From positions 1 through 56,931 of the IMG/VR virus record IMGVR_UViG_3300011114_000582: 56,931 nucleotides of DNA; one strand, 5' to 3'. Each line of letters opens with the position of its first letter. Position 1 is the stretch's first letter. This document shows positions 29,383-50,940 of the stretch, in pieces. Both the position numbers and the translations under genes were made by a program. The notes under the pieces were generated by a model. That model searched no databases. It had not been told where the DNA came from and saw nothing but the letters and a program-made list of their open reading frames with translations. Source of the DNA: a virus (lineage: Duplodnaviria > Caudoviricetes).

Positions 29383-29667
29383 AGCTTACGTGCGCATGCA
29401 CGAGAGAACCCCTGTATAGACTTCCTGTTCCATTAAGATGGTACGGCGTCTGGAACGCTCTAGTGTCTCGAAGCCCGCGTCCTTCGGGGCTTGAATGTGT
29501 CGTGTTCCGTTGTATCCCCCGTTCCATCATATACCCCCCTATTCGAACCACGGCGTTGACAGAGCATTCCCCCCGCGTGCGCATGGAACAATGGTACAGA
29601 GGGCCTGTCTGTCGAATGGGAGAGGGTGTTCCATCATGTGTTCCATTGCTATGGAACGGTGGAACAA
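29383..29667. repeat. Non-coding element A (iteron/dyad-rich, origin-like); inverted homologue of 50620-50940
   Basis: About eight GTTCCA/TGGAAC hexamers, GTTCCA-N6-TGG(A/T)AC dyads at 29427 and 29640; reverse complement aligns by eye to element B. Confidence 0.8.
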
Positions 29668-29677
29668 ACGGTGGGGA

Positions 29678-29706
29678 TTGCTGTTCCGATGGCGAGATGT
29701 TATAAT
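29678..29706 (+). promoter_or_regulatory. Promoter for the primase operon
   Basis: TTGCTG-N17-TATAAT with extended TG. Confidence 0.55.
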
Positions 29707-29760
29707 TCTACCAGCCCACAGCGGTGGTGTCAATATATAGACGTATAGAGAGGTGAAACG

Positions 29761-31323
29761 ATGACTAGTCTAGTTCAAGACTACGCGAATCTGTTCGCTG
29801 GGAATCTGCGGTCCTTTGGACAGTGGGACCCGGCTACTGGTAATATGGTAACGGAGAAATCCGAGGTAACGCTCCAGCACTACGCGGACCATTTGGAGGG
29901 TCGGATGGGGCTGGGTATAGTCCCAATCACGGACGGCGGTACGGTGCTCTTCGGGTGTATCGATGTGGATAATCACGGCAAAGGCTCGGATGGGTCCGAC
30001 ATCGACATCCCGAAGCTTGTGGAGAAGATCGAGCATTATCGGCTCCCGCTGGTAGCTACCCGGAGCAAGTCGGGTGGAGCACACTTGTACCTGTTCGGCG
30101 AGGAGTATCTTCCGGCCAAGCTCGTGATTCGGCTCCTGAATTCGTGGCGCGACATGCTCCAAATCCCGAACCACGTGGACATCTTCCCGAAGCAGGACTC
30201 GCTGACCACGTCCAGTGGCGAGAAGTCGCTCGGGAACTGGATTAACCTGCCGTTCTTCGACAAAGACAAGACGGTGCGGTACGCGGTGGATGACAAAGGT
30301 CAGAAGATGTCGTTCGAGCTGTTCATTACCTACGCCCAGTCGCGTCGGGTTACAGTGGCGGCACTGCAGGAGATGGCCCACCGGGAGCACTTGGAGGCCC
30401 CGCCGTGCATCCAAAAGATGATCCACACGGGCGTCGAATCCGGTTCTCGCAACGACTCAATGTATAATGTGGTGGTGTATCTTAAGCGTGCCCGCCCCGA
30501 CACGTTCTTTGACGATGCGATGGCACTGAACCGCACAATGTTCGACAAGCCGCTCGGTCCCGCTGAAGCCAAGAAGGTGATTCGGTCCGCGTCGCGCCGT
30601 GACTACTTGTACAAATGTAGCGAGGAGCCGTGCAAGTCGCTCTGCGACCGCAAGGTGTGCGTAACCCGCGAGTTCGGTATCTCGACCGAGGAGAGCAAAG
30701 AGCTTGATGCACAGGACCAACTGCCGCAGTTCACCGAACTGATCGAGTACCAGTCTGAACCCCCACGCTGGGGCATCCACGTCAACGGGAAGCTTATCGC
30801 GAACATCCCGACTATTATCCTACGTGACCCCGCCGCAATGGGCACGCTGATCTTCGAACAGCTCAAGATCAATATCCCCAAGATTACTCAAGATTCGTGG
30901 CGACGCCGCATTCTCGACCCGCTCATCCCGACCTTACGGGTGATCGAAGTGCCAAAAGAAGCGAGTGCGTCGGGTATCATTGCCGCGAAGTTCAACGAAT
31001 TCGTGCAAAAGGCCGACCTGACCTCCGATGGCACCAACACTGAGGATCGCAAGGCACTGACCCGCAACATCCCTGTGGTGCAAGTCATCAACGGCGTGCG
31101 GTGTATCGTGTTCCGGGGCACGGCCTTCTCCGAATTCCTCAAGCGCAACAAAGCCGAGGTAATGACGGGGATGGACTTGTGGACGTCATTGCGGCGAGAC
31201 TGTGGCGCGGACCACGACAAGCTCCGAATCCCGGGCGGCAAGCCCATCAATGTCTGGTATGCTCCTATAACTGAAGATCACGAGGTGAAAGTCGATGAAC
31301 CCAAGTTCCGATCAGAATTCTAA
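29761..31323 (+). CDS. Archaeo-eukaryotic (AEP, TOTE-like) primase with PriCT-like domain
   Basis: GCIDVD motif I, RSKSGGAHLYLF motif II, IFPKQ...GNWINLP, PPC...GSRND, Cys cluster CSEEPCKSLCDRKVC. Confidence 0.8.
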   Translation: MTSLVQDYANLFAGNLRSFGQWDPATGNMVTEKSEVTLQHYADHLEGRMGLGIVPITDGGTVLFGCIDVDNHGKGSDGSDIDIPKLVEKIEHYRLPLVATRSKSGGAHLYLFGEEYLPAKLVIRLLNSWRDMLQIPNHVDIFPKQDSLTTSSGEKSLGNWINLPFFDKDKTVRYAVDDKGQKMSFELFITYAQSRRVTVAALQEMAHREHLEAPPCIQKMIHTGVESGSRNDSMYNVVVYLKRARPDTFFDDAMALNRTMFDKPLGPAEAKKVIRSASRRDYLYKCSEEPCKSLCDRKVCVTREFGISTEESKELDAQDQLPQFTELIEYQSEPPRWGIHVNGKLIANIPTIILRDPAAMGTLIFEQLKINIPKITQDSWRRRILDPLIPTLRVIEVPKEASASGIIAAKFNEFVQKADLTSDGTNTEDRKALTRNIPVVQVINGVRCIVFRGTAFSEFLKRNKAEVMTGMDLWTSLRRDCGADHDKLRIPGGKPINVWYAPITEDHEVKVDEPKFRSEF

Positions 31324-33037
31324 AGTGCAGATCGCCTACGATGCAAAGACCAGTCGATTCGTTATCCACTCGCCGCCGTGGATGGTGGACAAGATTCGCC
31401 GTATTCCCAATCGGCGTTGGGATTCTCGTCGCCGCGTGTGGACAGCTCCTGCTCTACGGGCTAATAGCGAGTTCCTGCTTGGTAATTTTGACGCTGACAC
31501 ATTTACAAGCGATGCTCGCACGGTTGCAACTGAGACTATCGAGCGCGTACGCACGAATCAAGTAGCGGCGTTTCCGCCGGTCTACACGTTCAAGACTACG
31601 CCACGACCCTACCAGCTCAAAGGCCTCGATCATGCGTGGAATAAGAGCACATTCGCGTTCTACATGGATATGGGTACGGGCAAGACCAAGACTTCGCTCG
31701 ACCTCTTTGCCGCCTACTTTATGGACGCCAAGGTGGACCGAGTGCTGATCGTCACCAAGTTCAGCACACGCAAGAACTGGGAACGTGAGGTCCTCATCCA
31801 TTGCCCGATGGAGTGCGACACGATGATTCTCGACACCGGGAAGCCCAAGGCGTTCGAGGAGTGGAATACCGCGACCGATGGCCGCCTGAAGTTTCTGATC
31901 GTCGGCACCGAGTCGCTGGCGGCCGGTGGTGCGGTGCATCTTGCGCAAAAGTTCGTGGACTGCAGTACCCGCGTCGGCATGATCGTGGACGAGGCGCATA
32001 TGATCAAAAATCACTCAGCGGTGCGCAGTAAGAACTGCGTCAAGCTGGGCAAATCCGCGAATTACAAAGTGATCATGACGGGCACGCCAGTGGCGAATGG
32101 CCCCATGGACATCTTCATGCAATTCGAGTTCCTCGATCCGAACATTATCGGGATCGGGGATTTCTACTCTTTCCGCAATCGGTACGCGATCATGGGCGGG
32201 TATGAGGATCGGCAAGTGGTGGGCTACCAGAATATGGAAGAGCTTATCGAGCTGATCTCGCCGTTCATCTACCAAGTTCGCAAGTCCGAGGTGCTGACGG
32301 AGTTACCACCAAAAGTGTATCAGACCCGCGAGGTCCAGCTAACTGATGAACAAAAACGACTATATAAAGACATTGCTAAACGTGACAAGACGGTATCTGG
32401 AGATCAAGGAATCACCGTCAAGACGGTGCTTGAGCGAATGCTCCGGCTCCAAGAGATCGCCGGGGGTATCATCACCTTCGAGCGCAACCCCGACCTCTAC
32501 GATGCGGCGAAGTTCACGCACAATCGCATTGCAGGAAAGAATCCGAAAGTCGAAGAGCTACTCGCTATAGCCGAGGAGAACGACGCCAGTACGATCGTGT
32601 GGTGCCGGTTTATCGAGGAAATTCGTATGGTGTGCGAGGCCCTGCGCGAGAAGTACGGGCACGACTCTGTGGTGGAAATCCATGGCGGCATCTCCGAGAA
32701 TGACCGCGACCACAACGTGCAGAATCTGTTCCAGACTGGCAAAGCGCGATTTCTTGTGGGCAACGCGGCCACCGGCGGTGTAGGTCTGAACATGACTCGT
32801 GCGGAGTTGGTAGTGTACTACTCCAATTCGTTCTCTTTCACCGATCGCGAGCAGTCCGAGGACCGTGCACACCGGATTGGGCAGACGCGAAGCGTAACGT
32901 ACATCGACATCATCGCCGAAGGCACTGTGGATGCGGCCGTCACGCAAGCGTTACGCGAGAAAAAGGATGTGAGCGAGTTCGTGCGGACGAGCATCAACGA
33001 CCGAAACGATCGGAACTTGCTAGGCACGCTCGTGTAG
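31295..33037 (+). CDS. SNF2-family (SF2) helicase
   Basis: MDMGTGKT, DEAH, MTGTP, GGVGLNM, QSEDRAHRIGQ. Confidence 0.92.
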   Translation: MNPSSDQNSKVQIAYDAKTSRFVIHSPPWMVDKIRRIPNRRWDSRRRVWTAPALRANSEFLLGNFDADTFTSDARTVATETIERVRTNQVAAFPPVYTFKTTPRPYQLKGLDHAWNKSTFAFYMDMGTGKTKTSLDLFAAYFMDAKVDRVLIVTKFSTRKNWEREVLIHCPMECDTMILDTGKPKAFEEWNTATDGRLKFLIVGTESLAAGGAVHLAQKFVDCSTRVGMIVDEAHMIKNHSAVRSKNCVKLGKSANYKVIMTGTPVANGPMDIFMQFEFLDPNIIGIGDFYSFRNRYAIMGGYEDRQVVGYQNMEELIELISPFIYQVRKSEVLTELPPKVYQTREVQLTDEQKRLYKDIAKRDKTVSGDQGITVKTVLERMLRLQEIAGGIITFERNPDLYDAAKFTHNRIAGKNPKVEELLAIAEENDASTIVWCRFIEEIRMVCEALREKYGHDSVVEIHGGISENDRDHNVQNLFQTGKARFLVGNAATGGVGLNMTRAELVVYYSNSFSFTDREQSEDRAHRIGQTRSVTYIDIIAEGTVDAAVTQALREKKDVSEFVRTSINDRNDRNLLGTLV

Positions 33038-33045
33038 TGTATAAT
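33017..33045 (+). promoter_or_regulatory. sigma70-type promoter
   Basis: TTGCTA-N17-TATAAT. Confidence 0.55.
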
Positions 33046-33077
33046 AGAGCACATAGAGATTAGAACATAGAGGAAGT

Positions 33078-33419
33078 ATGCAAAAACCCGTAGTATTCGT
33101 TACTCAAGAAGTTACGACCGCCAACTATCAGGATGTGGAACGCTTTGGCGAACCCGTATTCCTGTCCACCAGCGAGGTGTCGAATGTCCCGGATTCCCTC
33201 CACAATCAAAAGCTCATCGCCTTCATCCGAAGCCGATTCGACAAGTACGACCCCGCCGTTGACTTCATCGCCCCCAGCGGAAGTCCTATCGTCGCGGGGT
33301 TGGTATTTGCGATGGCTCGAGAAAGAGGAGACACCTTCAACATCCTCAAGTGGAACAACCGCGATCGCCAATACACAGCGATCCGAATCGGAGTAAAGGG
33401 AGAAAAGAATGTCTACTGA
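33078..33419 (+). CDS. Hypothetical protein
   Basis: 113-aa ORF with ATAGAGGA RBS. Confidence 0.75.
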   Translation: MQKPVVFVTQEVTTANYQDVERFGEPVFLSTSEVSNVPDSLHNQKLIAFIRSRFDKYDPAVDFIAPSGSPIVAGLVFAMARERGDTFNILKWNNRDRQYTAIRIGVKGEKNVY

Positions 33420-33846: not shown

Positions 33847-33905
33847 ATTCGGCAATAATGCCGGACAACCCGCACGCGATGCGTGCATGTAACTAGGAGC
33901 TAGCG

Positions 33906-36453: not shown

Positions 36454-36717
36454 ATGGCGTACGACAACACTAATTCGGGCATGATGGCTCGAAATGAGAA
36501 TCGCAAGACCGACAAGCACCCGGAATTCTCCGGCTCGATCAACGTAGAGGGTGTGGATTATTGGCTCTCGGCGTGGGTAAACGAGGGCAAGCCCGGCGGG
36601 AAGCTCGAAGGCAAGAAATACTTCTCCATTAAGCTGTCGCGCAAAGAAGGCGGTTCTGCCGCTACTGGCCGTCCAGCCAGCGACTCCAATTTCGTGTCTG
36701 ACGACATCCCGTTCTGA
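36454..36717 (+). CDS. Small OB-fold SSB-like protein
   Basis: KHPEFSGSINVEGVDYWLSAW core and SSB-type DDIPF tail. Confidence 0.65.
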   Translation: MAYDNTNSGMMARNENRKTDKHPEFSGSINVEGVDYWLSAWVNEGKPGGKLEGKKYFSIKLSRKEGGSAATGRPASDSNFVSDDIPF

Positions 36718-38552
36718 TGACCGAATTCCCACGCATTGACCACGCTCCGGTGGTGGTCATCGACACCGAGACCACGGGGCTGAAGTGGTGGGCCGACAAG
36801 CTGTTCGGCATTTCCATCGCGCTCCCCGGGTTCTCGGGGTACTGGGACGTCCGGTCCGATCCTTACGTGATCACGTGGCTCAACGACCTAATCGCCGAGA
36901 AACGTGTCGATCTGTGGGTCGGCCATAACCTCAAATTCGACCTCCACTTCCTGCGGGAAGCTGGTGTGGCGATTCCGCTGGACCGAATCGACTGCACGAT
37001 GACCCGTGCCGCCCTGATCTCGGAGCACGAACCCACGTACGCACTCGACTTCCTCGCCCGCAAATACTGCGGGATGAAGAAGGACGACGAGATCTACGAG
37101 GAGATGTCGCGCATCTTCGGTGGCCGCCCGACTCGCAACGCGCAGATGCCGAACATTTCACGCGCTCCGATCAGCATTGTGTCCAAGTACGCGATCCAAG
37201 ACGCCGTGGTGACGCTGGCACTGTACAACTGGCAAGAGGAGCAGATGCGGACGCAGAATCTCGCGCAGGTTCACAAGCTCGAGCGCGACCTAATGCCCGT
37301 GATTATGGATATGGAAGAGCAGGGTGTGCGGGTGGACGTTGGGCTGGCTGAGAAGGCCGTCCGTGACCTCACCGTGCGCGTTGACAATATGCAGAGGGAT
37401 CTGAATAGCTTGGCCGGTTTCGAGGTCAACCCGAACCCTTCCGGATCGATCGCCGATCTGTTCAAGCCCAAGCTCGGGGACGATAATGAGTGGTATCTCA
37501 TCGACGGCACGAAAGCGGACAAGACCGACGGCGGCAAGGCCTCGATCAACGCCGACTGCTTGCGACGCATGAAGCACCCCGCCGCGAAGATGATTCTCGA
37601 CTTGCGCAAAATGCTCAAGACTCGCGACACTTTCCTTTCGGGCCACATTCTCGGACATGAACACGATGGCATCATTCATTGCAACTATAACCAGACTAAG
37701 AATGACAGTGAAGCGGGTACAGGCACTGGACGGCTCAGTGTTACAAATCCGGCTCTACAACAAATACCTTCGCGGGACACTGCTATTAAGGCGTTGGTCC
37801 GGCCGATTTTCAAGTCGGATTTTGGAGCTAAATGGCTGGGTCTGGACTGGTCCCAATTCGAGTTTCGGGTCGCTAACCATTACGGTCAAGTTCCCGCGAT
37901 CTTGGAGGCGTACAAGGCGAACCCGCAACTAGACTTCCACCAATTGGTGTCGGACATGACCGGGATCCCCCGCAACGCCCAGTACGCCGGTGGCCCGTCC
38001 TCCAAGGCGATTAACCTCGGACTCGCGTTTAACATGGGATCCGGCCGACTGGCACAGGAGTGCGGATTGCCCTACACCGAGGAGGTGGGACCCAGTGGCA
38101 ACGTGTTCCTGAAGGCGGGACCCGAGGCGATGGCACTGTTCGAGAAGTACCACGCCGCGAACCCCGGGATGCGCAACACCGCGCAGAAGGCGAGTAACAT
38201 CGCGAAGGAGCGTGGCTCAGTGCACTCGGTGATGGGACGCCGCTTGCGCTTTCCCGGTGGACAATTCGTGCACAAGGCGTCGGGGCTGATCTACCAAGCC
38301 ACCAGCGCGGACTGCATGAAGCAAAAGCTCATCGAACTGCACAAGTACTTAACCGCCGAAGGCTGTGGGCGACTACTGCTGACGGTACACGACGAGGTGG
38401 GTATATCGCTCGATAATGACTCACTCGACAAAGCGCATGAGGTAGCACGAATCTACACGACCTTTGATGGTGTAGAATGCCCCATTCATCTACGTGTTCC
38501 AATCACGTGCGACTGGGGTGTAGGCGAAGACTGGTACGAAGCGAAAGGATAG
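36717..38552 (+). CDS. dpoZ: Family A DNA polymerase with 3'-5' exonuclease, DpoZ type
   Basis: DTETTG and HNLKFD exo motifs; TGRLS, LDWSQFEFR (A), KAINLGLAFNMG (B), TVHDE (C); immediately upstream of purZ. Confidence 0.8.
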   Translation: MTEFPRIDHAPVVVIDTETTGLKWWADKLFGISIALPGFSGYWDVRSDPYVITWLNDLIAEKRVDLWVGHNLKFDLHFLREAGVAIPLDRIDCTMTRAALISEHEPTYALDFLARKYCGMKKDDEIYEEMSRIFGGRPTRNAQMPNISRAPISIVSKYAIQDAVVTLALYNWQEEQMRTQNLAQVHKLERDLMPVIMDMEEQGVRVDVGLAEKAVRDLTVRVDNMQRDLNSLAGFEVNPNPSGSIADLFKPKLGDDNEWYLIDGTKADKTDGGKASINADCLRRMKHPAAKMILDLRKMLKTRDTFLSGHILGHEHDGIIHCNYNQTKNDSEAGTGTGRLSVTNPALQQIPSRDTAIKALVRPIFKSDFGAKWLGLDWSQFEFRVANHYGQVPAILEAYKANPQLDFHQLVSDMTGIPRNAQYAGGPSSKAINLGLAFNMGSGRLAQECGLPYTEEVGPSGNVFLKAGPEAMALFEKYHAANPGMRNTAQKASNIAKERGSVHSVMGRRLRFPGGQFVHKASGLIYQATSADCMKQKLIELHKYLTAEGCGRLLLTVHDEVGISLDNDSLDKAHEVARIYTTFDGVECPIHLRVPITCDWGVGEDWYEAKG

Positions 38553-40941: not shown

Positions 40942-41501
40942 GTTTAACAGTATACGAACAACTTCGCGCATGCCACGTTAGACGCTGGCACATCGTGCAG
41001 ACGTCGCGAGAGCAGACGCTGGCCGAGCATTCTTTCGCAGTCGCGGTGATAGCGGGGTCCCTTGCGGCGGCTATGCGCTGGAACGGACTCTTGCAGGAGT
41101 CGGGCAAGCTCAAGCTCTTGCAGTGGGCACTCGCGCACGACATCATCGAGGTGCGCACCGGGGATATGCCGACGCCGTTCAAGCGAGACCTAGAAGCCGT
41201 AGGGGGTAAGGGTATCGTGGAAAAGGCCGAGGACCGAGTGGACGCCGACACGATGGCCGCTTACCGTCAGGTGCGCGGGACCGAAGTCGAGACGATCGTC
41301 AAGCTCGCGGACCAGATCGAGGCGATCTTTTTCCTGCAGGACAACGGAGTCGGGGCACACGCCAAGCAAGTGCTCGATGGCCTTCGTGCGATCCTGTCCG
41401 ACATGGTGAACGAGGCCGAACGCCAGTTCCCCAAGCTGTCGCCCCGCGAGTCGGTGCGCCGCGTTTGCAACGATATAGGCATTACAGGGGGATGGTTATG
41501 A
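40938..41501 (+). CDS. datZ: DatZ, HD-domain dATP triphosphohydrolase
   Basis: YEQLRACHVRRWHIVQT...LAEH...ALAHD..E.RTGD.PTP...KLAD..EA..FL..NG.GAHA; in the purZ cluster. Confidence 0.85.
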   Translation: MSLTVYEQLRACHVRRWHIVQTSREQTLAEHSFAVAVIAGSLAAAMRWNGLLQESGKLKLLQWALAHDIIEVRTGDMPTPFKRDLEAVGGKGIVEKAEDRVDADTMAAYRQVRGTEVETIVKLADQIEAIFFLQDNGVGAHAKQVLDGLRAILSDMVNEAERQFPKLSPRESVRRVCNDIGITGGWL

Positions 41502-41740
41502 ACTGCATCAAGTGCGGCGAGGACACCCGAGTCACGACCACGTACCAAAACGCCAATGGCATCACCCGCCGTCGCCGGATTTGTAACCACTGCGAATTTC
41601 GCTTCACCACCCGCGAAAAGGCCGACGAGCGCGATATAGAGCGTGCCGAACTGCCCGAGCCGCCGAAGGACAAGAAAAAGAAGGGGGTTGACAACCTATC
41701 GCAGGTGTGGTATAATTCGTCCCCTACCAATAAACCATAG
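41498..41740 (+). CDS. NrdR-like N-terminal zinc ribbon protein (no ATP cone)
   Basis: MNCIKC...TRV...RRRRICNHCEFRFTTRE. Confidence 0.75.
   Translation: MNCIKCGEDTRVTTTYQNANGITRRRRICNHCEFRFTTREKADERDIERAELPEPPKDKKKKGVDNLSQVWYNSSPTNKP
41688..41716 (+). promoter_or_regulatory. Consensus promoter for the HDAC-like gene
   Basis: TTGACA-N17-TATAAT; spacer holds CAGGTG (reverse of the CACCTG box). Confidence 0.8.
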
Positions 41741-41753
41741 AGGACACCACACG

Positions 41754-42611
41754 ATGACGATTCGCACCCCCGTATTCTACCACCCGGCCCAAGAGGTCTC
41801 CTACGACTTTATCTCGGTGAGCAAGATCCCCAAGTTCATCGCCCAGTCGGGTGCGGAGGTGCGTTCCGACTTCGGTCCCTACACGACGGCTGACTTGGAG
41901 GAGGCCCACAGCCGTGAGTATGTCCATGGGGTCCTCGACCATACCACTCCGAACGGCTTCGGCACGATCGACCCCGAGCTTACTAACTCGCTCCTGTACT
42001 CGAACGCCGGCCACTGGACGGCGGCTCGCCACGTGCTCCAGCACGGCGGTGTCGCGTGCTCCGCGACGCAGGGCTTCCACCACGCGCACTTCGAGGACGG
42101 CTACGGCTACTGCACGTTCAACGGCCTGATGATCACCGCGATGAAGGCACTGCGCAACGGCGCGAAGAACGTGCTGATTATCGACGGCGATGGACACCAC
42201 GGCGATGGCACCGAGGACGTGATGGACCACCTGATGATCCGGGGCCGCGTGGTGCACATCACTCGCCCCGACATAGGACGCCCTATCCACTCGCAGTGGA
42301 ATGCCAAGATGTGGCAGTCGTTTGCTAAGGGATTGATTCGAGACTCGAAGGCGGGTATAATTCTGTATCAGGCCGGTGCTGACGCTTGGGACCGCGATCC
42401 CTATGGCGTCGGATACCTGTCCAAGGAGGGTCTTGCGGCCCGCGATCGTGGCATCTTCACCGCCGCACGCGACGCCGGGGTCCCATTAGTCTGGAATCTG
42501 GCCGGTGGATACGCGAAGAAGATGCAAGACACGATCGACATCCACCTGCAAACGCTGGCAATCAGCGACGAGGTCTACCATGCCACTGCCGAATCAACTG
42601 TCGTTCGCTGA
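41754..42611 (+). CDS. Zn-dependent histone deacetylase (HDAC/AcuC/APAH) family protein
   Basis: GFHHA, GYCTFN, IIDGDGHHGDGT, YQAGAD..D, LAGGY all present; ATAGAGGAC RBS. Confidence 0.9.
   Translation: MTIRTPVFYHPAQEVSYDFISVSKIPKFIAQSGAEVRSDFGPYTTADLEEAHSREYVHGVLDHTTPNGFGTIDPELTNSLLYSNAGHWTAARHVLQHGGVACSATQGFHHAHFEDGYGYCTFNGLMITAMKALRNGAKNVLIIDGDGHHGDGTEDVMDHLMIRGRVVHITRPDIGRPIHSQWNAKMWQSFAKGLIRDSKAGIILYQAGADAWDRDPYGVGYLSKEGLAARDRGIFTAARDAGVPLVWNLAGGYAKKMQDTIDIHLQTLAISDEVYHATAESTVVR
42333..42361 (+). promoter_or_regulatory. Possible internal promoter for the downstream 423-aa gene
   Basis: TTGATT-N17-TATAAT inside the HDAC gene. Confidence 0.35.
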
Positions 42612-43851: not shown

Positions 43852-44137
43852 TCTAGATGGGGTGGTCGCGGAGCGCGGCGCATCGTACGGCGACTACACG
43901 ACCCAAGCCGAGATCGCCCAAACGCTGAAGGACCTATTTCGCGAGTGCCCCGGCTGGGAGCGGCTGGAGTACCACCAGCGCGAATCGCTCGACATGATCG
44001 CGTGCAAGGCCTCCCGGATTTTGAACGGCGACCCGAATCACCTCGACTCGTGGGTGGACATCGCGGGGTACGCGACCATCGTGGCGGCACGAATACCGAA
44101 GGGGGGTATTGACAAGGCTACCCCACCTGTGGTATAA
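43832..44137 (+). CDS. DUF6378-like protein
   Basis: ERGASYGD...LDMIACKASRILNGDPNHLDSWVDIAGYA; GGAGG RBS. Confidence 0.75.
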   Translation: MPQSSLDLDGVVAERGASYGDYTTQAEIAQTLKDLFRECPGWERLEYHQRESLDMIACKASRILNGDPNHLDSWVDIAGYATIVAARIPKGGIDKATPPVV

Positions 44138-44138
44138 T
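44109..44138 (+). promoter_or_regulatory. Early promoter with CACCTGTG box
   Basis: TTGACA-N18-TATAAT. Confidence 0.8.
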
Positions 44139-44207
44139 ACAGGTTCTGGGTTGATAAGACGATCCAGTACCCCATCAATCGATAGACACTATAGAGGACA
44201 CACAATC

Positions 44208-44504
44208 ATGGCAAAGACTACTACTAAACCCGTCGCGATCACTACCGACATGGTGGACGAACTCGCCAGCGTACGTGACCAGCTCAAGGCCCTGACCGCC
44301 CGCGAGAAGTACCTGAAGGGGATCTTCCGCAAGGGCGGCGACGCGATCTACCGTGGTGACCAGCACCAAATCGAGATCAAGTTCACGACCCGCCCACAGC
44401 TCGACATGGATGCCGTCCGCGCAAAGCTCTCGGCCGAGTGGATCGAAGAGCACACCGGCGAAGTCGAGGTGATGAACATCCGCCAGATGGAGATCGTAAA
44501 ATGA
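44208..44504 (+). CDS. Hypothetical early protein
   Basis: ATAGAGGAC RBS; coiled coil plus beta segment. Confidence 0.7.
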   Translation: MAKTTTKPVAITTDMVDELASVRDQLKALTAREKYLKGIFRKGGDAIYRGDQHQIEIKFTTRPQLDMDAVRAKLSAEWIEEHTGEVEVMNIRQMEIVK

Positions 44505-44719
44505 AGGTGACCCCCTACACGACCAAGACCGGCATCCAAATCGGGTGCATGTACCAGCCGAAGCAGACGTGGGAGCCGAGCGCGGACATGGAAAGGCTCC
44601 AGCTCTCGCTACTCAACCCCAGCTATCGCCCAACGGCCACGTTAGTGATCGACACGATCTTGTGGCTCGCGAGTGTGGTACTGATCGCATTGTTAATCGT
44701 AGGAGTACACTATGCTTGA
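44501..44719 (+). CDS. Hypothetical membrane protein
   Basis: PYTTKTGIQIG motif, C-terminal TM helix. Confidence 0.6.
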   Translation: MKVTPYTTKTGIQIGCMYQPKQTWEPSADMERLQLSLLNPSYRPTATLVIDTILWLASVVLIALLIVGVHYA

Positions 44720-44900
44720 AGACGACGAAGTCGAACAGGACGAGGGCGAGAACACTTGCCCCATTTGTAACGCTGGCATGGAGGCCCGGTGCTTGGAGTC
44801 CAAGACCGACCCCCGGCACGACATCTTTTGGGCCAAGTACGGCTACGAGTGCGGCGAGTGTGGTCACAAAGGCGACACTTGGGAAGTACTGGCGGATTAG
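44712..44900 (+). CDS. Small zinc-ribbon protein
   Basis: CPIC...CGEC; AGGAG RBS. Confidence 0.65.
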   Translation: MLEDDEVEQDEGENTCPICNAGMEARCLESKTDPRHDIFWAKYGYECGECGHKGDTWEVLAD

Positions 44901-44907
44901 ACGATAC

Positions 44908-44936
44908 TTGACAGGTTATTCCACCTGTGTTATAAT
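44908..44936 (+). promoter_or_regulatory. Early promoter with CACCTGTG box
   Basis: TTGACA-N17-TATAAT. Confidence 0.85.
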
Positions 44937-44972
44937 TCATTCTTCATCAACACATAGAGGACACTAGACATC

Positions 44973-45953
44973 ATGGCACACGAACTACACACAAATGCGG
45001 CTGGCAAGGCATCAATGGCTTACGCGGGCGACACCCCTTGGCACGGCTTGGGTCAGCGACTCACACCCGACGCACCACTCGACGTTTGGACTCGCGAAGC
45101 GGGACTCGACTGGGAGGTGAAAAAAGGCGCGATCGCCTACGAGGTGCGCGACGAGGAGGACAATCCGGTCCGTATGCAGACCGTCCCCGCACGTTGGGCA
45201 CTGTACCGCTCCGACACCGGTGCGCCCCTGTCCGTGATGTCGAGCAATTACCACATCACTCAGCCCCGCGCCGTGATGGAGTTCTTCCGCGACCTGACTG
45301 AAGGTGGCGATTTCAAGATGGAGACCGCTGGCGTCCTGCGCAACGGCTCCACCTACTGGGCGTTGGCCAAGGCCGAGGATTCGTTCGACGTGGGCGGCGG
45401 TGACGTGGTCCTGCCCTACCTCTTGCTCGCGACGTCTTGCGACGGCTCGATGTCGAACACCGCGCAGTTCACGACCACCCGAGTGGTGTGCAACAATACG
45501 CTGTCGCTCGCCGTGGCGAACAAGACCGGCCAAATCCGCGTGCCGCACAGCACCCAGTTCAACGCCGAGAAGTTCAAGGCAGAGCTTGGCCTGTGCGCGG
45601 ATACTTGGAGCCAGTTCAAGACGAACGCGACCACGCTGTCCAAGCGCAAGGTGTCGAAAGAGGAGGCGGCCCGCTACTTCCTCGACGTATTCTACGGCGA
45701 GGAAGCCGAGTCGATCGACGTCGAAGCCAAGCGTCCGATGATCGAGCTGGTGACCAAGATCTACCTCGACGGTGTGGGCCAGCGAGCCAAGACCGCACAA
45801 GGCACCGCGTGGGGACTGCTCAACGCCGTCACCCGATTCGCCGACCACGAGCGCAAAGCCGCGTCCCGCGACACTCGCCTCCAGTCCGCTTGGTTCGGTG
45901 CCGGTGCCCGACTGAAACGCGACGCCTTGACACAGGCTCTCGCGCTGGTATAA
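44973..45953 (+). CDS. DUF932 (phage/plasmid LGT family) protein
   Basis: PWHGLG, AGLDWEV, METAGVLRNG, RVVCNNTL, GTAWGLLNAVTRFADH. Confidence 0.85.
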   Translation: MAHELHTNAAGKASMAYAGDTPWHGLGQRLTPDAPLDVWTREAGLDWEVKKGAIAYEVRDEEDNPVRMQTVPARWALYRSDTGAPLSVMSSNYHITQPRAVMEFFRDLTEGGDFKMETAGVLRNGSTYWALAKAEDSFDVGGGDVVLPYLLLATSCDGSMSNTAQFTTTRVVCNNTLSLAVANKTGQIRVPHSTQFNAEKFKAELGLCADTWSQFKTNATTLSKRKVSKEEAARYFLDVFYGEEAESIDVEAKRPMIELVTKIYLDGVGQRAKTAQGTAWGLLNAVTRFADHERKAASRDTRLQSAWFGAGARLKRDALTQALALV

Positions 45954-45954
45954 T
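45927..45954 (+). promoter_or_regulatory. Promoter overlapping the DUF932 stop codon
   Basis: TTGACA-N16-TATAAT with extended TG. Confidence 0.55.
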
Positions 45955-45990
45955 TGGGGTTCATGGTTCTGCAGTTGCCGTGAGATTTTA

Positions 45991-46014
45991 AAGGGGCTTC
46001 GGCCCCTTCTTTTT
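45991..46014 (+). terminator. Rho-independent terminator
   Basis: AAGGGGC-TTCG-GCCCCTT followed by CTTTTT. Confidence 0.8.
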
Positions 46015-46032
46015 AAACACATAGAGGAAATT

Positions 46033-46809
46033 ATGACTAGAATAGTCTGGACCAACGAGGAAAAGGTCGCTATCTTCGCCCACATGATCGAGGTCTTCCG
46101 GCAGTTCCCGAAGCTCGGTCGTAAAGAAGCACTCAAGCGAGCGCAGACCGTACTAAACGCCAGCCGGTGGATCAAAGTCACTGACCAACGCGTGTTCAAC
46201 TACAAAGACCGCATTGAAGTCGCCCGGCAGAAGGCCCAGCAGGAGTCGAAGAAGAAGCCTCCGGAGGCCGTCGTCGCCCCTGCCCCTATACTAGCCCCAA
46301 CCCCCGCGCCCGAGCGCAAGGAGAGTACCACGGAACGCCTCGCTCAGGCATTCGAGCGACTGCTGGACATTATGGCCGACGCGGTGGCGGCTAAGGTGGC
46401 CGAGCGGATCACTCCACCGATGTCTCGCGAGGAGCTGACGCGGCACGTGGACCAACAATTCGAGGCGGAGTTCACCAAATACCCGAGGCCCCGCCACGAC
46501 CCCCAGCCCATTCGTCACCCTACCGGCTACGCGAAACCCGGCGTGCTCGTAATCGGACTACTACCGGCACAGGCTCATCACGTGAGCCACCTGTTGGCCC
46601 AGTATTTGGACCTGTCCTTTTTCACCGCTGAGGAAGCCATCACGTTCCCCAAGCTCACCCGGGCACACACGGTGCTGATGACCAAGTTCATTTCGCACGC
46701 CGTGCAGGACAAATACCGCAAGTCCCCGAAGCTCCACTTCTGCAACGGAAGCGTGGCCGTGCTGATTAGCCTCCTCGAAGGAATCTACAAAGAGTCGAGG
46801 GGTACTTGA
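46033..46809 (+). CDS. Hypothetical protein (possible N-terminal DNA-binding helices)
   Basis: 258-aa ORF, ATAGAGGA RBS, WTNEEK start. Confidence 0.7.
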   Translation: MTRIVWTNEEKVAIFAHMIEVFRQFPKLGRKEALKRAQTVLNASRWIKVTDQRVFNYKDRIEVARQKAQQESKKKPPEAVVAPAPILAPTPAPERKESTTERLAQAFERLLDIMADAVAAKVAERITPPMSREELTRHVDQQFEAEFTKYPRPRHDPQPIRHPTGYAKPGVLVIGLLPAQAHHVSHLLAQYLDLSFFTAEEAITFPKLTRAHTVLMTKFISHAVQDKYRKSPKLHFCNGSVAVLISLLEGIYKESRGT

Positions 46810-46834
46810 CAGATTGTAGCACCTGTGTTATAAT
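46806..46834 (+). promoter_or_regulatory. Early promoter with CACCTGTG box
   Basis: TTGACA-N17-TATAAT. Confidence 0.85.
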
Positions 46835-46868
46835 ATAACCTTTTTAACAACACATAGAGGACAACACC

Positions 46869-47126
46869 ATGCAAGCTAAAACCTACACCAGCCCCGAGCA
46901 GTCTATGTACGGGTGCGACATCGAAGAGTTCAAGGCGTCTGTACGCCGCTCGATCACCTACCGCTTCACCGGCGGCAACATGGTCGTCGCGGGTCTGATG
47001 TCCGACGCGCAGGAGCTGATGGCCATGGGCGATAGCGAGACCGCCCGCCAGTACCTGAACCGTGCAAAGTCGATCCTGTTCGACATCATGGACGGCGAAA
47101 TGTCCGGTAGTGCGGAGGTGAAGTGA
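46869..47126 (+). CDS. Hypothetical early protein
   Basis: ATAGAGGAC RBS; MSDAQELM...ARQYLNRAK motif. Confidence 0.7.
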   Translation: MQAKTYTSPEQSMYGCDIEEFKASVRRSITYRFTGGNMVVAGLMSDAQELMAMGDSETARQYLNRAKSILFDIMDGEMSGSAEVK

Positions 47127-47368
47127 TGAACCGCACGATCTCCTACACTGACCTCGCGGCACTCTTTCGCCGCAAATTCGCCCACTCCGATTTGTACTCG
47201 TGCGAGTGCGCCCTGCGCGACTGCTATGACGCGCTGTTAGCCGTCGGTGAGCACCGCGACCCCGAATACGCTCGGAAGCTGTGGTGCGAAATCGACGCCA
47301 TCCGCGATCGCCAAATGGCGATCAATAAGAACGCTCGTGAACTCAAAGAAATGAGGGCCTACCCATGA
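47123..47368 (+). CDS. Hypothetical early protein
   Basis: GGAGG RBS, coupled. Confidence 0.65.
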   Translation: MMNRTISYTDLAALFRRKFAHSDLYSCECALRDCYDALLAVGEHRDPEYARKLWCEIDAIRDRQMAINKNARELKEMRAYP

Positions 47369-47640
47369 TGATACTCAACTCCGCCATGGACCTGATCGAC
47401 GCGATCGCCAATCGGGACCTCAAGCCCATTGCCTACTCGGGGCACGAATACGGACGCAACTGCGTCGCCTGTATCGTCGAAGCTGGCTCTTGGCTCGGAC
47501 TCGAGGGCTTGCCCAAGGCGGGTGCCACGGTGGACCAGATGGGCAAAGACTATATCGTCTACTGGCCCCGTGCCGAATGGACCGAGAGCGTGCAAGAGTA
47601 CGTTGACACCATCTACGACCCGTCGGGAAAGGTAGAATGA
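47365..47640 (+). CDS. Hypothetical early protein
   Basis: YSG...DQMGKDYIVYWP motif, coupled. Confidence 0.65.
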   Translation: MMILNSAMDLIDAIANRDLKPIAYSGHEYGRNCVACIVEAGSWLGLEGLPKAGATVDQMGKDYIVYWPRAEWTESVQEYVDTIYDPSGKVE

Positions 47641-47672
47641 CCCTATTCGCTGTAGGGTCGTTTGCGGGGGTA

Positions 47673-47702
47673 TTGACAAACCCATTGCACCCGTGTTATA
47701 AT
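47673..47702 (+). promoter_or_regulatory. Early promoter with CACCCGTG box
   Basis: TTGACA-N18-TATAAT; leader duplicated from the 44109 promoter. Confidence 0.85.
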
Positions 47703-47770
47703 ACAGGTTCTGGATTGATAAAACGATCCAGTGACCACAACCCCACATAATCTTATAGAGGACACGCACC

Positions 47771-48274
47771 ATGAAAATCGCAACACGCACAGCTACTAAG
47801 ACTCAAGTCGAAATCGTCTCCGTGAACGGCGGCTGGACCACAATCCGCGCTATCGGCCAGCAGAAGACCCTCAAGGTCCGCAACGGCGAATTGACCGGCC
47901 ACACCACAATCACTAAGGCCACGCCTACTACCGCCGAATTGGTGATCGCCAAGGCACAGGCCACCGCCCGTACCAAGATGGACATCAACGAGCGCAAAAA
48001 CGGCAAAGTCGATCCGCTCTACTTGCCCCAGTACACCGCGTACGCCATCCAGCTGGCCGACGGCACGAAGAAGCGTTCGATCGACAAAGGCGACGCGGTG
48101 GCCACGTCACTGCGCAAGCTGACTCTCGACGCCGTGTACGCGACAGCGTCCAGCGCGACCGGCATCTCCCAAGTCGGCCTCCGCGATCGCTTCGCCCACC
48201 TCAACCCCGGCATGCAACGCATGAACCTTGGCAACATGATCCGCAAAGCACTGAAGGAAACCGCAAATGCCTGA
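47771..48274 (+). CDS. Hypothetical early protein
   Basis: ATAGAGGAC RBS; HLNPGMQRMNLGNMIR motif. Confidence 0.7.
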   Translation: MKIATRTATKTQVEIVSVNGGWTTIRAIGQQKTLKVRNGELTGHTTITKATPTTAELVIAKAQATARTKMDINERKNGKVDPLYLPQYTAYAIQLADGTKKRSIDKGDAVATSLRKLTLDAVYATASSATGISQVGLRDRFAHLNPGMQRMNLGNMIRKALKETANA

Positions 48275-48482
48275 TACGAAAAAAGAAGTCCGGGTGCGCT
48301 TGCACTCGGCCACCCTCACGGGTGAAATGCTACTGGACGGCCAGCGCATCGCCTTCCGCGCCGAAATCGACGGCGGCAAGGTGGATGCGTGGTTCGATCC
48401 GACGAAGGACGGACAAGTCGTGGACCGCTGGGTCGCCTTCCGTGCTTTGGACCGATGGATTGACGATAACCTCCGGGGCTAA
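48267..48482 (+). CDS. Hypothetical early protein
   Basis: 71-aa ORF, AAGGA RBS. Confidence 0.6.
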   Translation: MPDTKKEVRVRLHSATLTGEMLLDGQRIAFRAEIDGGKVDAWFDPTKDGQVVDRWVAFRALDRWIDDNLRG

Positions 48483-48486
48483 CGCG

Positions 48487-48636
48487 GTGCAGTTCTGTGC
48501 GAAATGCAAAGCCGAGCGGCTGTCCGGCGGCGGCGTCGAAACCCGCCCCGGCCGGTGGCTGTGCGCGAAATGCTGGGTCTCGTTCACCCAACGGAAAGTA
48601 GGGGGGATTGACAAAGGTATGGCACCTGTGTTATAA
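48487..48636 (+). CDS. Small zinc-finger protein (start uncertain)
   Basis: FCAKC...WLCAKC. Confidence 0.45.
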   Translation: MQFCAKCKAERLSGGGVETRPGRWLCAKCWVSFTQRKVGGIDKGMAPVL

Positions 48637-48637
48637 T
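48608..48637 (+). promoter_or_regulatory. Early promoter with CACCTGTG box
   Basis: TTGACA-N18-TATAAT. Confidence 0.8.
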
Positions 48638-48672
48638 TCGTCTTTTTACTTCAACAGATAGAGGACACCGCA

Positions 48673-48897
48673 ATGACTGACACGCTCGCCACCCTGATCG
48701 CCACTCCAATCGCTGGTAACTACGCCGCTGACGCCGCCCTCGTCAAGCGCATCAACCGATTCGCCGAGTCCGACGCCCCCGTCGCCGACCGCGCCGATGC
48801 CGTCCGCTTCCTGTCCCGCGTCGTTTACGGTCTCCACGACCCGCTGATGTCCTACGATGACGCGACTCTCCTCCGGATCTTCCTGACCGGCGAGTAA
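48673..48897 (+). CDS. Hypothetical early protein
   Basis: ATAGAGGAC RBS. Confidence 0.65.
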   Translation: MTDTLATLIATPIAGNYAADAALVKRINRFAESDAPVADRADAVRFLSRVVYGLHDPLMSYDDATLLRIFLTGE

Positions 48898-48900
48898 TAC

Positions 48901-48930
48901 TTGACAAAGGTACCGCACCCGTGTTATAAT
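48901..48930 (+). promoter_or_regulatory. Early promoter with CACCCGTG box
   Basis: TTGACA-N18-TATAAT. Confidence 0.85.
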
Positions 48931-48963
48931 AGACATTTTAACCAACAGATAGAGGACAACACC

Positions 48964-49239
48964 ATGAACAAGCAACGCCGCGCCAAGATCGAAGCCGAAC
49001 TGCTCGCCGCCCGTACCGCGATCGAGTCCCTGCGCTTCGCGCTGGAGAACCTGCAAGACCTCGCGAACGAAGAGCAAGAATGCTTCGACAACATGCCCGA
49101 AGGCCTCCAAGCGTCCGAGAACGGCCAGCGCATCGAGACGATCGCGCAAGAGTTCGATTCCGCTTGCTCCACGCTCGATTCCGCAGTGGACGAGGTGGGC
49201 AGTGCGCTGGACGACATCGAATCCGCAGTGGACCAGTGA
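48964..49239 (+). CDS. Acidic coiled-coil hypothetical protein
   Basis: MNKQRRAKI...EEQECFDNMPEGLQ.SE.G motif; ATAGAGGAC RBS. Confidence 0.7.
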   Translation: MNKQRRAKIEAELLAARTAIESLRFALENLQDLANEEQECFDNMPEGLQASENGQRIETIAQEFDSACSTLDSAVDEVGSALDDIESAVDQ

Positions 49240-49253
49240 AAGGAGCCGACGCT

Positions 49254-49682
49254 ATGGACTTCGCACCCCTGACCGAGCACTCTCCCCGTCCCAATGGGGA
49301 CCCCGACTACGTGCCCTACTGGGCAAAGGGCGAGTACGCCCGTGCCAACGGCACCAGCTACACCACCGAATCTGGCGTCACAATCGTCGGCGGCCGGGCC
49401 ACCGGAAGGCTCCCCGTGGCTTCGAGACCCGCCCCGGTACCTAAGGTCCAACCCGCCGCCCCAAGCGTCCCGGAGACCCCGCGGAAGGCCTCGGCGACCC
49501 CTCCGAAGCCCACCCGGACCCCGGACCTCGTGGCCCAGCTCCTCGCCGTGCACAAAACCCGCGAAGCGCGGCTCGGACTGTGCGCGAAATACGGCGTCGA
49601 TCCGGCGATCTTCACGAACGCTCCGAACCCGGGCGTGGCCGCTATGCGGCTGGCCAATGCATTGCGCGCGAAGGTGCTGTAA
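49254..49682 (+). CDS. Hypothetical Pro-rich early protein
   Basis: AAGGAG RBS; C-terminal NPGVAAMRLANALR. Confidence 0.65.
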   Translation: MDFAPLTEHSPRPNGDPDYVPYWAKGEYARANGTSYTTESGVTIVGGRATGRLPVASRPAPVPKVQPAAPSVPETPRKASATPPKPTRTPDLVAQLLAVHKTREARLGLCAKYGVDPAIFTNAPNPGVAAMRLANALRAKVL

Positions 49683-49697
49683 TGTACAATCGGCCCC

Positions 49698-49838
49698 ATG
49701 GCCGACACCACGCTCGTACTGCTTGCCCTCCTCGGACTCGGGGTGGGCACGCTGTTGTGGGCGATCCACGAACTCAATCGAGGACTGAACGATGACAAAG
49801 ACGACGATTCAGACGATGGCGGCTCGCGCCTTCCCTGA
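49698..49838 (+). CDS. Possible small membrane peptide (46 aa), leaderless
   Basis: MADTTLVLLALLGLGVGTLLWAIHEL...DDKDDDSDD; ATG 7 nt after TACAAT; overlaps next ORF. Confidence 0.4.
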   Translation: MADTTLVLLALLGLGVGTLLWAIHELNRGLNDDKDDDSDDGGSRLP

Positions 49839-50004
49839 CCTACCCCAGCTCCAGACGATGCTCGCCGACGTGTACGACATCGCGTACCAGCAAGCACTCG
49901 ACGACGCGGCGTACAAAATCTCCACGCTGACCGCGCTGGGCGACACCGCCGCCTCCTTCGCCGTATTCGTGCGGGACTTACGGAAGCCTCTCGGAGACGC
50001 TTGA
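49792..50004 (+). CDS. Hypothetical protein
   Basis: 70-aa ORF, GAGGA RBS, GDTAASFAVFVR motif. Confidence 0.6.
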   Translation: MTKTTIQTMAARAFPDLPQLQTMLADVYDIAYQQALDDAAYKISTLTALGDTAASFAVFVRDLRKPLGDA

Positions 50005-50104
50005 GAGATGCCAAGCTATTACCATACCGGTACTATATCTCCTGACGCAAGGAAGACCCCAAGGAAGGCCTCGGAGAGGTATCGGAGCAAGGTGCGGAGG
50101 TCCG

Positions 50105-50548
50105 GTGCGACTGCCTGAGCAGAAGCTCTACGACTGGCTGGTCCGCAAGGTGGGCCACATCGCCCTACTGGAGCGTGTTGAGAACCGGGTGAAAAAAGAC
50201 ACCCCGGACCTGTACTTCGCCACCAAAGCCCACTGCCTCCCCGACCGCCCCTTGATCGGCTGGATCGAACTTAAAGTCCTCGACGCCTTCCCCGCGAAAG
50301 CCACCACCACCGTCAAACTCCCGCACTGGACCAACGGCCAACGCTACTGGGCGATCCGGCACCGAACGTACGGCGGCAACACATGGCTCGTGGTCCAAGT
50401 CGGCGACGAGGTGTTCCTGCACAACGGCCCGGAGCTTGCAACCAACGACTGGACCCAAGCGGAGTGGCGCACCTACGGCGTGCGGCTGGACAAACGGAGC
50501 TGTACCACCGAGGCCGTACTTGCAGGGCTGTACGAACTCATGTTTTAA
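50105..50548 (+). CDS. PD-(D/E)XK nuclease, VRR-NUC / Holliday junction resolvase-like
   Basis: E...RVEN...TPDL...WIELKV...Q..W; GGAGG RBS with GTG start. Confidence 0.75.
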   Translation: MRLPEQKLYDWLVRKVGHIALLERVENRVKKDTPDLYFATKAHCLPDRPLIGWIELKVLDAFPAKATTTVKLPHWTNGQRYWAIRHRTYGGNTWLVVQVGDEVFLHNGPELATNDWTQAEWRTYGVRLDKRSCTTEAVLAGLYELMF

Positions 50549-50619
50549 TTCTCCCACGGCGTGCAACGCGCCGCTCGGGGTGATCTCACCCTCGGAACCG
50601 GTTAGTGACCACTAACCTC

Positions 50620-50940
50620 TTGTTCCACCGTTCCACAATGATGGAACGCCAGATGGAACGCTTCTCCCATTCGAAAAAAGACCCGGTGTTCCATTGTTAC
50701 ACACGCACGCGGGGGTATTGCCCTGTCAACGGCATGGTTTAATATATATGGGTATATGATGGAACGATGGTACACGGGCTGTGTGTCTCGAAACCCGCGT
50801 CGGACGGGGCTTGTGAGGCAGTAGTGCGTTCCATCGCCGTTCCATCATTATGGAACAAACCACAGTCTTCAGACGTCGAATATTCTTCCACCACCACTCA
50901 GGGCCTCTCTGATCCTTCCTCGTGTACGCGCATGAAAGCT
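50620..50940. repeat. Non-coding element B; inverted homologue of 29383-29667
   Basis: About nine GTTCCA/TGGAAC hexamers, GTTCCA-N6-TGGAAC dyads at 50630 and 50839, central imperfect hairpin. Confidence 0.8.

Follow-up and report, generated by a model that had tools for sequence, protein, structure and literature searches.

The 56,931-base stretch of DNA analysed here (hereafter the window; record IMGVR_UViG_3300011114_000582 of IMG/VR) is a complete phage record, the first 127 bases of which recur at its end. All the genes with a family match lie on the plus strand (40 open reading frames, or ORFs, around and between the elements described below were compared with Pfam, and 30 of these also with PHROGs; most of the structural arm was outside these scans). 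The late and structural genes run from terS, the small terminase gene, and terL (51640-53088) across the end and start of the record up to position 29314. The gene of an AEP primase is followed by those of an SNF2 helicase, proteins similar to gp32, gp33 and gp34 of Pam3, a UvrD helicase, a short SSB-like protein and PolA, and the small early genes occupy 44.1-50.5 kb, behind six near-consensus sigma-70 promoters. Two large non-coding gaps, 29315-29760 (446 bp) and 50549-51038 (490 bp), hold the subjects of this work, the elements A and B, respectively. A and B are two old, diverged copies of a single cis-acting module of about 320 bp, and both copies are kept under selection on the short repeats they contain.

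A preliminary description of this DNA had held that its two largest intergenic regions are homologous on opposite strands, and the comparisons bear this out. Using 29383-29700 as a BLAST query against the genome, we retrieved 50620-50857 on the minus strand (about 240 nt, 75% identity, E 3.3e-33), and the two longest inverted repeats of the window also join the two elements (29546-29606/50679-50739, 61 nt, 80%; 29628-29672/50615-50659, 45 nt, 80%). When A and the reverse complement of B are aligned with MAFFT, the homology reaches the outer ends (29392-29406 versus 50917-50931), and a stretch of 40 nt occurs in B only. The repeat word GTTCCA/TGGAAC is present 48 times in the window, as compared with 30.7 ± 5.5 times in shuffled sequences (1 of 100 shuffles reached 48). 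Eight of these hexamers fall in A (29427-29665) and nine in B (50622-50856), within about 240 bp per element and at 8- and 12-bp steps, while the other 31 are distributed over the remaining 56 kb. The counts are those given previously, and the GTTCCA dyads reported at positions 29427, 29640, 50630 and 50839 read as claimed. It had also been stated that A precedes the primase and B precedes terS, which holds with the primase starting at 29761 and with the terS start at 50922 replaced by the ATG at 51039.

The hexamers proved to be better conserved than their spacers, as had been proposed. Between A and B, 72 of the 96 hexamer columns are identical versus 143 of the 271 other columns, and in an alignment of 12 elements the mean majority fraction is 0.93 for the 66 hexamer columns versus 0.68 for the 176 others (Mann-Whitney p 7e-19). 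The alignment nevertheless stays significant without the repeat word: after masking of all the hexamers and their one-mismatch variants, two matching stretches remain, of 28 nt (89%, 38 bits) and 31 nt (87%, 39 bits), as compared with 22 bits for the best of 200 shuffles. Since this masked similarity persists, A and B are homologous, and not merely two piles of one word. The A/B alignment has 1-nt indels and no open frame common to both copies, which argues against coding.

A search of viral contigs with the primase yielded 29 loci, including five whole-genome relatives (G001-G005; primases 77-98% identical), all of which carry both copies on opposite strands and about 21 kb apart. Each of the six genomes of this clade (the window and its five relatives) has exactly two clusters of at least seven hexamers, one in the gap that separates the primase from the last structural gene, the other in the gap that separates terS from the gene of a 147-amino-acid nuclease-like protein. 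The elements evolve fast, as two genomes with primases 98% identical have A elements 92% and B elements 84.5% identical. Within a genome A and B are 52-71% identical, about as much as the A elements of different genomes (57-73%, leaving out the window/G005 pair at 93%), hence the duplication is old. G002 is an exception, its A and B being 79% identical to each other versus 47-68% to the elements of other genomes; this likeness points to occasional gene conversion between the copies. Spacer strings common to the two copies of the same genome are found in both G001 and G002. Most of the G002 hexamers read GTTACA, in both copies, a word also found in L024 and L025, which may reflect a shift in the preference of the binding protein; TGTAAC/GTTACA is also a minority variant, occurring singly in GTTCCA genomes. 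No pair was seen in G006, a 64%-complete contig of 30.7 kb, which has (in L172, at 14421-15725) a 650-bp tandem duplication of 76% identity that overlaps the primase gene at its 5' end as well as the region upstream of it. A 16-mer scan of viral contigs returned mostly chance matches and was not used.

A protein search extended the comparison to cultured phages with primases 40-44% identical, namely SH-Ab 15497, PMBT28, PSA28, Kokobel2 and K21lambda1. SH-Ab 15497 is a known Z-genome phage (Z, 2-aminoadenine), the genes of which all lie on one strand, with gaps upstream of the primase and upstream of terS. Its pair is inverted (20925-21146 versus 43173-42959, 71% over 233 nt, E 2e-25) and its repeat, GAGCAACC, has an 8-bp period. 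The other four cultured phages all have tandem TGGAAC runs at two sites on the same strand, 21-23 kb apart, and no matches to a control pattern; three of the four also have one single minus-strand TGGAAC match about 200 bp past the second site. G007 and G008, two uncultured phages (primases 35-36% identical; 37% G+C), have two TGTTAC-type clusters each, one ahead of the primase, the other where the structural arm begins; the non-palindromic parts of these clusters match in direct orientation (E 7e-16 and 3e-21). The window phage itself probably carries Z in place of adenine in its genome, judging from the genes of PurZ, a MazZ-like pyrophosphohydrolase and a DatZ-like protein beside PolA. PurZ homologues occur in G001-G005, and none was found in G007 or G008.

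The pair is therefore present in 13 of the 13 adequately complete genomes (the window, G001-G005, the five cultured phages, G007 and G008), with one copy upstream of the AEP primase and the other at the far end of the arm. The architecture expected in relatives is found as regards the pair itself, not as regards its inverted layout: the copies are inverted in seven genomes (the window, G001-G005 and SH-Ab 15497) and direct in the six others. The pair is thus a fixed feature of the examined phages with the AEP-primase/SNF2/gp32-34-like/UvrD/PolA module, and the inverted orientation in the clade of the window would be a state of that lineage rather than a mechanism. The repeat word varies with the lineage (GTTCCA, GTTACA, GAGCAACC or TGTTAC) and is the same in both copies of a genome; by our reading these words have a common core GTTnC (GTTCC, GTTAC or GTTGC). 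Also by our reading, the order of the sub-motifs toward the primase promoter is colinear in the window, PMBT28, PSA28, K21lambda1, Kokobel2 and SH-Ab 15497, and the primase-side copy appears to keep its orientation, the far copy being the one that is turned. In 023Pt_psg01, DSL-LC04 and HTVC027P (primases 27-31% identical), the gap upstream of the primase, the only one looked at, is about 50 bp long; without such a gap, the layout does not reach these three distant phages.

This distribution bears on the explanations put forward initially, the first of which was a pair of strand-specific mirror origins, each priming one strand for strand displacement by the primase and PolA, as do ssiA and ssiB of RSF1010. 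The inverted pairs of the window, G001-G005 and SH-Ab 15497 would suit such a system, as would the single conserved hairpin of each element and the resemblance of the N-terminal domain of the primase to RepB' (3h20, E 2e-4). However, as the copies are direct in six of the 13 genomes, which have the same replication module, the mirror layout cannot be required; furthermore, the elements are internally dyad-rich and hence not strand-specific in themselves. We regard mirror origins as improbable.

The second explanation, that A and B are recombination substrates, i.e., inverted repeats allowing the 21-kb arm to invert or serving a site-specific recombinase, can call on the partial concerted evolution of the copies (seen in the A/B likeness of G002 and in the spacer strings of G001 and G002) and on the flipping of B between lineages. 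The gene order speaks against it, since primase, PolA, terS and terL lie on one strand and in the same order in all six clade genomes, with no arm inversion seen; what differs between lineages is an element of about 350 bp, not the arm. In addition, the likeness between A and B is limited to 75%, their perfect runs being short, and recombination between the direct copies of six genomes would delete the essential arm. As noted previously, no recombinase is evident, none being found among the ORFs scanned; in this, and in having a single arrangement in the clade, the arm differs from invertible segments of the Gin/Cin/Hin type. We thus consider recombination sites highly improbable. Contigs of four of the 23 public sequencing runs listed showed no joints over 27500-32500, such contigs being blind to inversion isomers, coverage peaks and molecule ends; one contig of 25 kb, from the probable source run, spans A, and the short loose ends met there belong to low-depth relatives.

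Regarding their anatomy (Table 1), each element comprises 8-12 short repeats in direct and dyad arrays phased by 8 or 12 bp, a G+C-rich hairpin and two or three further conserved boxes. The columns that are invariant in the 12-element alignment belong to the hexamers, to TCGAATGGG, to a part of CCCCGCGTGCG and to the outer motif. The four-hexamer cluster is nearly invariant in all 12 aligned elements, the hairpin folds in ten of them, and the core string CGTTGACA is also found in both copies of SH-Ab 15497. Between the homologous part of B and terS there is a stretch of about 100 bp with no counterpart in A. It includes, at 50941-50978, a module with three GTTAT(G/A) words, two of which form a dyad; recognisable in at least four of the six aligned B elements, this module could be a late promoter or a site related to TerS and pac.

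Table 1. Positions of the elements A and B, of their parts and of the neighbouring genes in the window.
Feature	Position	Strand	Remarks
Element A	29375-29700	+	Iteron-bearing module, from the late-operon terminator to the primase promoter
Element B	50590-50945	-	Paralogous inverted copy, from the early-operon end to terS
Terminator-like hairpin and T-rich tail before A	29335-29367 (hairpin 29335-29357)	+	Ends the late operon; outside the homology
Outer-end motif GCGCATGCACGAGAG of A	29392-29406	+	B partner at 50917-50931, minus strand
Outer dyad of A and third hexamer	29427-29456	+	GTTCCA-N6-TGGTAC-N6-TGGAAC
G+C-rich hairpin of A	29470-29492		No T-run on either strand
Two or three forward hexamers of A	29505-29526		Followed by a short AT patch
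Conserved non-hexamer core of A	29554-29581	+	CGTTGACAG...CCCCCGCGTGCG; withstands hexamer masking
Two reverse hexamers of A	29584, 29592		8 bp apart
Conserved TCGAATGGGAG box of A	29612-29622	+	B partner at 50664-50674, minus strand
Four-hexamer cluster of A	29628-29665	+	GTTCCA at 29628 and 29640, TGGAAC at 29652 and 29660; 12-, 12- and 8-bp steps
Primase promoter	29678-29706	+	TTGCTG-N17-TATAAT, TGT extension, extended -10; specific to A
Minus-strand promoter-like site	29705-29733	-	TTGACA-N17-TAGAAT; points into A, overlaps the primase promoter
AEP primase	29761-31323	+	Pfam AEP-TOTE and PriCT_1, no other Pfam domain
PolA	36717-38552
PurZ	38477-39685		Matches Adenylsucc_synt (Pfam) and phrog_1211
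MazZ-like pyrophosphohydrolase	39606-40154		Matches dATP-dGTP_PPHyd
DatZ-like HD protein	40938-41501		Matches HD/YfbR-like
Terminator-like hairpin before B	50600-50617	+	Ends the early operon
Four-hexamer cluster of B	50622-50659	-	Mirror of 29628-29665
Conserved core of B	50704-50731	-
G+C-rich hairpin of B	50791-50812
Outer dyad of B	50828-50856	-
terS (small terminase)	51039-51698	+	First gene past B

Upstream of the primase, the minus-strand promoter-like site is near-consensus and kept in 14 of the 19 distinct sequences of the clade. The spacer of this site also folds into a small hairpin, located at the 5' end of the primase mRNA, so that either the promoter or the hairpin could account for the conservation. 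Through this promoter, transcription would enter A from the same relative end as readthrough of the early operon enters B, which could matter for origin activation. As no such promoter was seen in our reading of the PMBT28 and SH-Ab 15497 sequences, we give it no weight.

The same promoter is one of two features that could suggest that each element encodes a structured non-coding RNA, the other being the conserved hairpin, with changes on both sides of its stem. However, the folding energy is no better than that of shuffled sequences (z -0.51 on the plus strand, -1.00 on the minus strand), the hexamers in direct repeat change along with those in dyads, and the sense of the elements relative to the flanking transcription differs between direct-type and inverted-type genomes. 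As Rfam gave no match either (a transfer RNA scan was likewise without matches), there is very little likelihood that the elements act as RNA.

The strongest contender is transcription control: an early phage protein bound at the hexamers would activate the middle (primase) operon and the late (terS) operon, or insulate them, replication starting elsewhere. Each element is placed past a terminator-like hairpin and ahead of the next operon, and the last hexamer of A ends 12 bp before the weak -35 box (TTGCTG) of a primase promoter kept in 18 of the 19 distinct clade sequences. In PMBT28, a TTGACA-N17-TATAAT promoter directly follows the second element. Moreover, the six sigma-70-like promoters at 44.1-48.9 kb suggest an early class for the host RNA polymerase, with primase and late operons needing more, and no sigma-70-like promoter was found ahead of terS. 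On the other hand, the distance between hexamers and primase promoter is not kept (about 12 bp here versus about 100 bp in PMBT28 and K21lambda1), and with B flipped in the clade and in SH-Ab 15497, its promoter-proximal cluster is located about 400 bp from terS and faces away from it. Furthermore, 10-12 sites plus a hairpin and further boxes over 320 bp exceed usual operators, and the AT-rich relatives have perfect DnaA boxes in the primase-side element (two of the five of the G008 genome, one of the three of the G007 genome). Transcription control, together with the protein-bound boundary site suggested in the preliminary description, is a live rival, which we rate as possible though on the unlikely side. 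The six early promoters (44102-48966) read TTGACA-N17-TATAAT with a TGT extension and are followed by a common leader, AACA(C/G)ATAGAGGACA, ahead of the ATG; they are probably a class of immediate-early promoters.

Several features point to an iteron-type assembly site, namely the phased repeats, the word common to both copies, the extra boxes and the hairpin, the fixed place on the primase side and the conservation across the module. We therefore favour, with about an even chance of its being correct, the reading in which A and B are twin origin-type arrays for one conserved replication protein, possibly the primase, A being an origin and B a second origin or an auxiliary site. In this scheme the hexamers would be iterons bound by one conserved phage replication protein, for which the primase is the best candidate; A would be the replication origin, and B a second array for the same protein, able to work in either orientation. 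B might itself be an origin. Alternatively, it might play an auxiliary part, by pairing with A or, as has been proposed for oriR of SPP1, by arresting the fork, in this case before terS; a site so close to terS might lend itself to a hand-over to packaging. Consistent with this reading, A ends 60 bp before the AEP primase gene and keeps its primase-side place in all 13 genomes, B not being beside that gene, and the repeat word shared by both copies fits, indirectly, a single binding protein. Also in its favour are the perfect DnaA boxes and, in G007, the very AT-rich patch within the primase-side element of the AT-rich relatives. Of the original interpretation, the conserved binding-site arrays for a common factor thus appear to be supported and are tied to the primase/replication module, unlike the functional role given to the inverted orientation.

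As to the reader of the hexamers, the proteins common to the pair-bearing phages are the primase, SNF2, the gp32-, gp33- and gp34-like proteins, UvrD, PolA and the small nuclease-like protein. The primase contains an AEP domain, a PriCT-1 domain and four invariant cysteines at 286-300, and its N-terminus matches the structure of the Prim-Pol of CAPP (E 2e-10), in addition to RepB'. Its C-terminal half, folded alone, gave a model with a pLDDT (predicted local distance difference test) of 84.8, in which residues ~396-516 align to winged-helix domains (VIA Z 5.0-7.1): the oriT-binding protein of pCW3 (7.1), the Cch helicase C-terminus (6.2), and SaPIbov1 Rep, ORC2 and the MCM8 WH domain (5.8 each). 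Several of these matches come from replication initiators or from oriT/origin binders. Being the sole common protein with a large unassigned part, and having this winged-helix-like C-terminal model, the primase is the leading candidate, and it possibly reads the hexamers through that domain.

Two other candidates were rejected. The gp32-like protein does not discriminate by co-variation, because it is 56-59% identical in the GTTACA clade and 62% in L022, a GTTCCA phage. The 147-amino-acid protein encoded directly upstream of B (50105-50548) looks by eye like a PD-(D/E)xK nuclease, with a D...ELK motif; it matches PHROG 2165, labelled 'DNA helicase', and is conserved in G006-G008. A sequence search of solved structures returned nothing for the C-terminus of the primase, the gp34-like protein or the 147-amino-acid protein. 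Separately, a 91-amino-acid protein (41465-41740), which consists of an NrdR-type zinc ribbon only (E 2.5e-8), without ATP-cone, is possibly a small DNA-binding protein.

The following observations weigh against twin origin-type arrays read by the primase. First, the winged-helix match is middling, since according to the tool a Z below 8 can be a common arrangement, and Foldseek found nothing at E <= 0.001 for the model of the primase C-terminus. Second, the GTTACA clade has only four primase substitutions of its own, conservative without exception and confined to the N-terminal part, and the window and PMBT28 differ in the putative recognition helix in spite of their common word GTTCCA. In view of this middling match and of a co-variation with no tie to the hexamer word, we name the primase as leading candidate only. 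Third, the GTTACA shift of G002 may lie within the tolerance of one protein and have been spread by gene conversion. Fourth, the GC skew, the cumulative form of which had been suggested as a check, has no clean switch at A or B. Its profile is dominated by coding bias and by glycine-rich genes, three adjoining paralogous ORFs at 10683-14335 (378, 401 and 315 amino acids) with GGT-rich glycine repeats and blocks 74-78% identical, which are presumably tail fibre or collagen-like proteins. Fifth, an AT-rich unwinding patch is not marked in A, where the G+C content of a 40-nt window does not fall below 42% (about the 5th percentile of the genome), whereas B has one (33%, below the 1st percentile). 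Sixth, both elements lie at operon boundaries by promoters, where the regulatory reading fits equally well.

With respect to the fifth point, the AT patch of the two G007 elements goes down to 12% and 17% G+C within 40 nt (L168+L169, 6432-7100 and 26950-27850), the 12% patch being on the primase side and below the 1st percentile of the G007 genome, and the primase-side patches of the three Z-genome phages checked (38-45% G+C) are much weaker than in this non-Z phage. According to PMC8342488, an AT-rich patch may not melt more easily in 2-aminoadenine DNA.

We also considered that the two arrays are the ends of one unit. A protein bound at A and B would pair them or turn B into a fork barrier, the arm between them being a domain, and theta replication from A would lead to concatemers at B and then to headful packaging. 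We find this more elaborate scheme decidedly unlikely; if true, it would mean that a Z-genome origin works via iterons plus a G+C hairpin and does not depend on an AT-rich patch that melts easily.

Duplicated origin-like iteron elements occur in P4 and in the plasmids P1 and F. In P1 (incC/incA) and F (incB/incC), two arrays of 19-22-bp iterons, about 1 kb apart, flank the initiator gene, the second array acting by titration or pairing in the control of plasmid copy number; the present arrays are 21 kb apart and belong to a virulent phage. The RSF1010 oriV resembles our case in the AEP-related fold of its primase and in its hairpin-bearing origin DNA. Both ssi hairpins of RSF1010 are within one origin, though, and RepC, a separate protein, reads the RSF1010 iterons, whereas here there is one hairpin per element and the elements are 21 kb apart. 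P4 has short octamer iterons both in its ori and in crr, a second cis site that is located several kb from ori and oppositely oriented. In the P4 alpha protein, a DnaG-type primase fused to an SF3 helicase, a C-terminal winged-helix domain reads the origin (PMC2777425, in the sections covered). Here, the AEP primase has no helicase domain by Pfam, the helicases SNF2 and UvrD are encoded by separate genes and the winged-helix match is weak; the structure of the P4 winged-helix domain (1ka8) was not among the best 50 structural matches listed for the primase C-terminus.

Such duplicated elements are also known in the lytic pac-type siphovirus SPP1, the nearest case to have been worked out and a precedent for two similar origin elements with one initiator, where, in the part of PMC6316719 consulted, oriL and oriR are described as alike in organisation and both bound by gp38, replication starting at oriL. 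The model proposed in the consulted parts of PMC6316719 and PMC3485210 has gp38, when bound to oriR, stalling the fork and triggering the switch to concatemer synthesis. SPP1 thus resembles the window in having two distant, similar elements in one genome, one of them at the replication genes, and the second site is similarly placed, oriR being in an intergenic gap among the late genes and B lying before terS. SPP1 differs in its dedicated initiator gp38, its DnaB-type helicase, its use of the host primase and the location of oriL inside gene 38. In the window it is an AEP primase that adjoins the element, which occupies an intergenic gap and has repeats of 6-8 bp, and the two copies enclose the entire replication/early arm; no sequence relation with SPP1 exists.

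The novelty of the present case lies in four traits of the module: it is tied to a replication cassette with an AEP primase, it is conserved in a family with cultured Z-genome phages among its members, it brackets the replication/early arm in full, and its far copy is free in orientation. In line with the earlier remark that no description of this layout was known, we found none of the pair in the literature searched, outside which subscription papers and supplements largely lay, and the genome maps therein could show the gaps. Neither the PMBT28 announcement nor PMC8342488 describes the elements, and the passages covered of a bioRxiv preprint (10.1101/2025.10.22.683976) make no mention of a replication origin, inverted repeat, intergenic or iteron. 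The elements are concrete, conserved origin candidates that bear on how Z-genome phages start their replication, and they could supply a cis element for Z-DNA replicons. As the family includes the cultured Z-genome phages SH-Ab 15497 and PMBT28, the question is directly testable in the laboratory. Furthermore, a two-site layout kept across primases only 35% identical, with one site flipping, makes a natural test of SPP1-style two-origin models in unrelated phages.

Finally, the replication/nucleotide arm also encodes, at 41643-42611, a 322-amino-acid protein with a domain of the histone-deacetylase family (E 2e-26).

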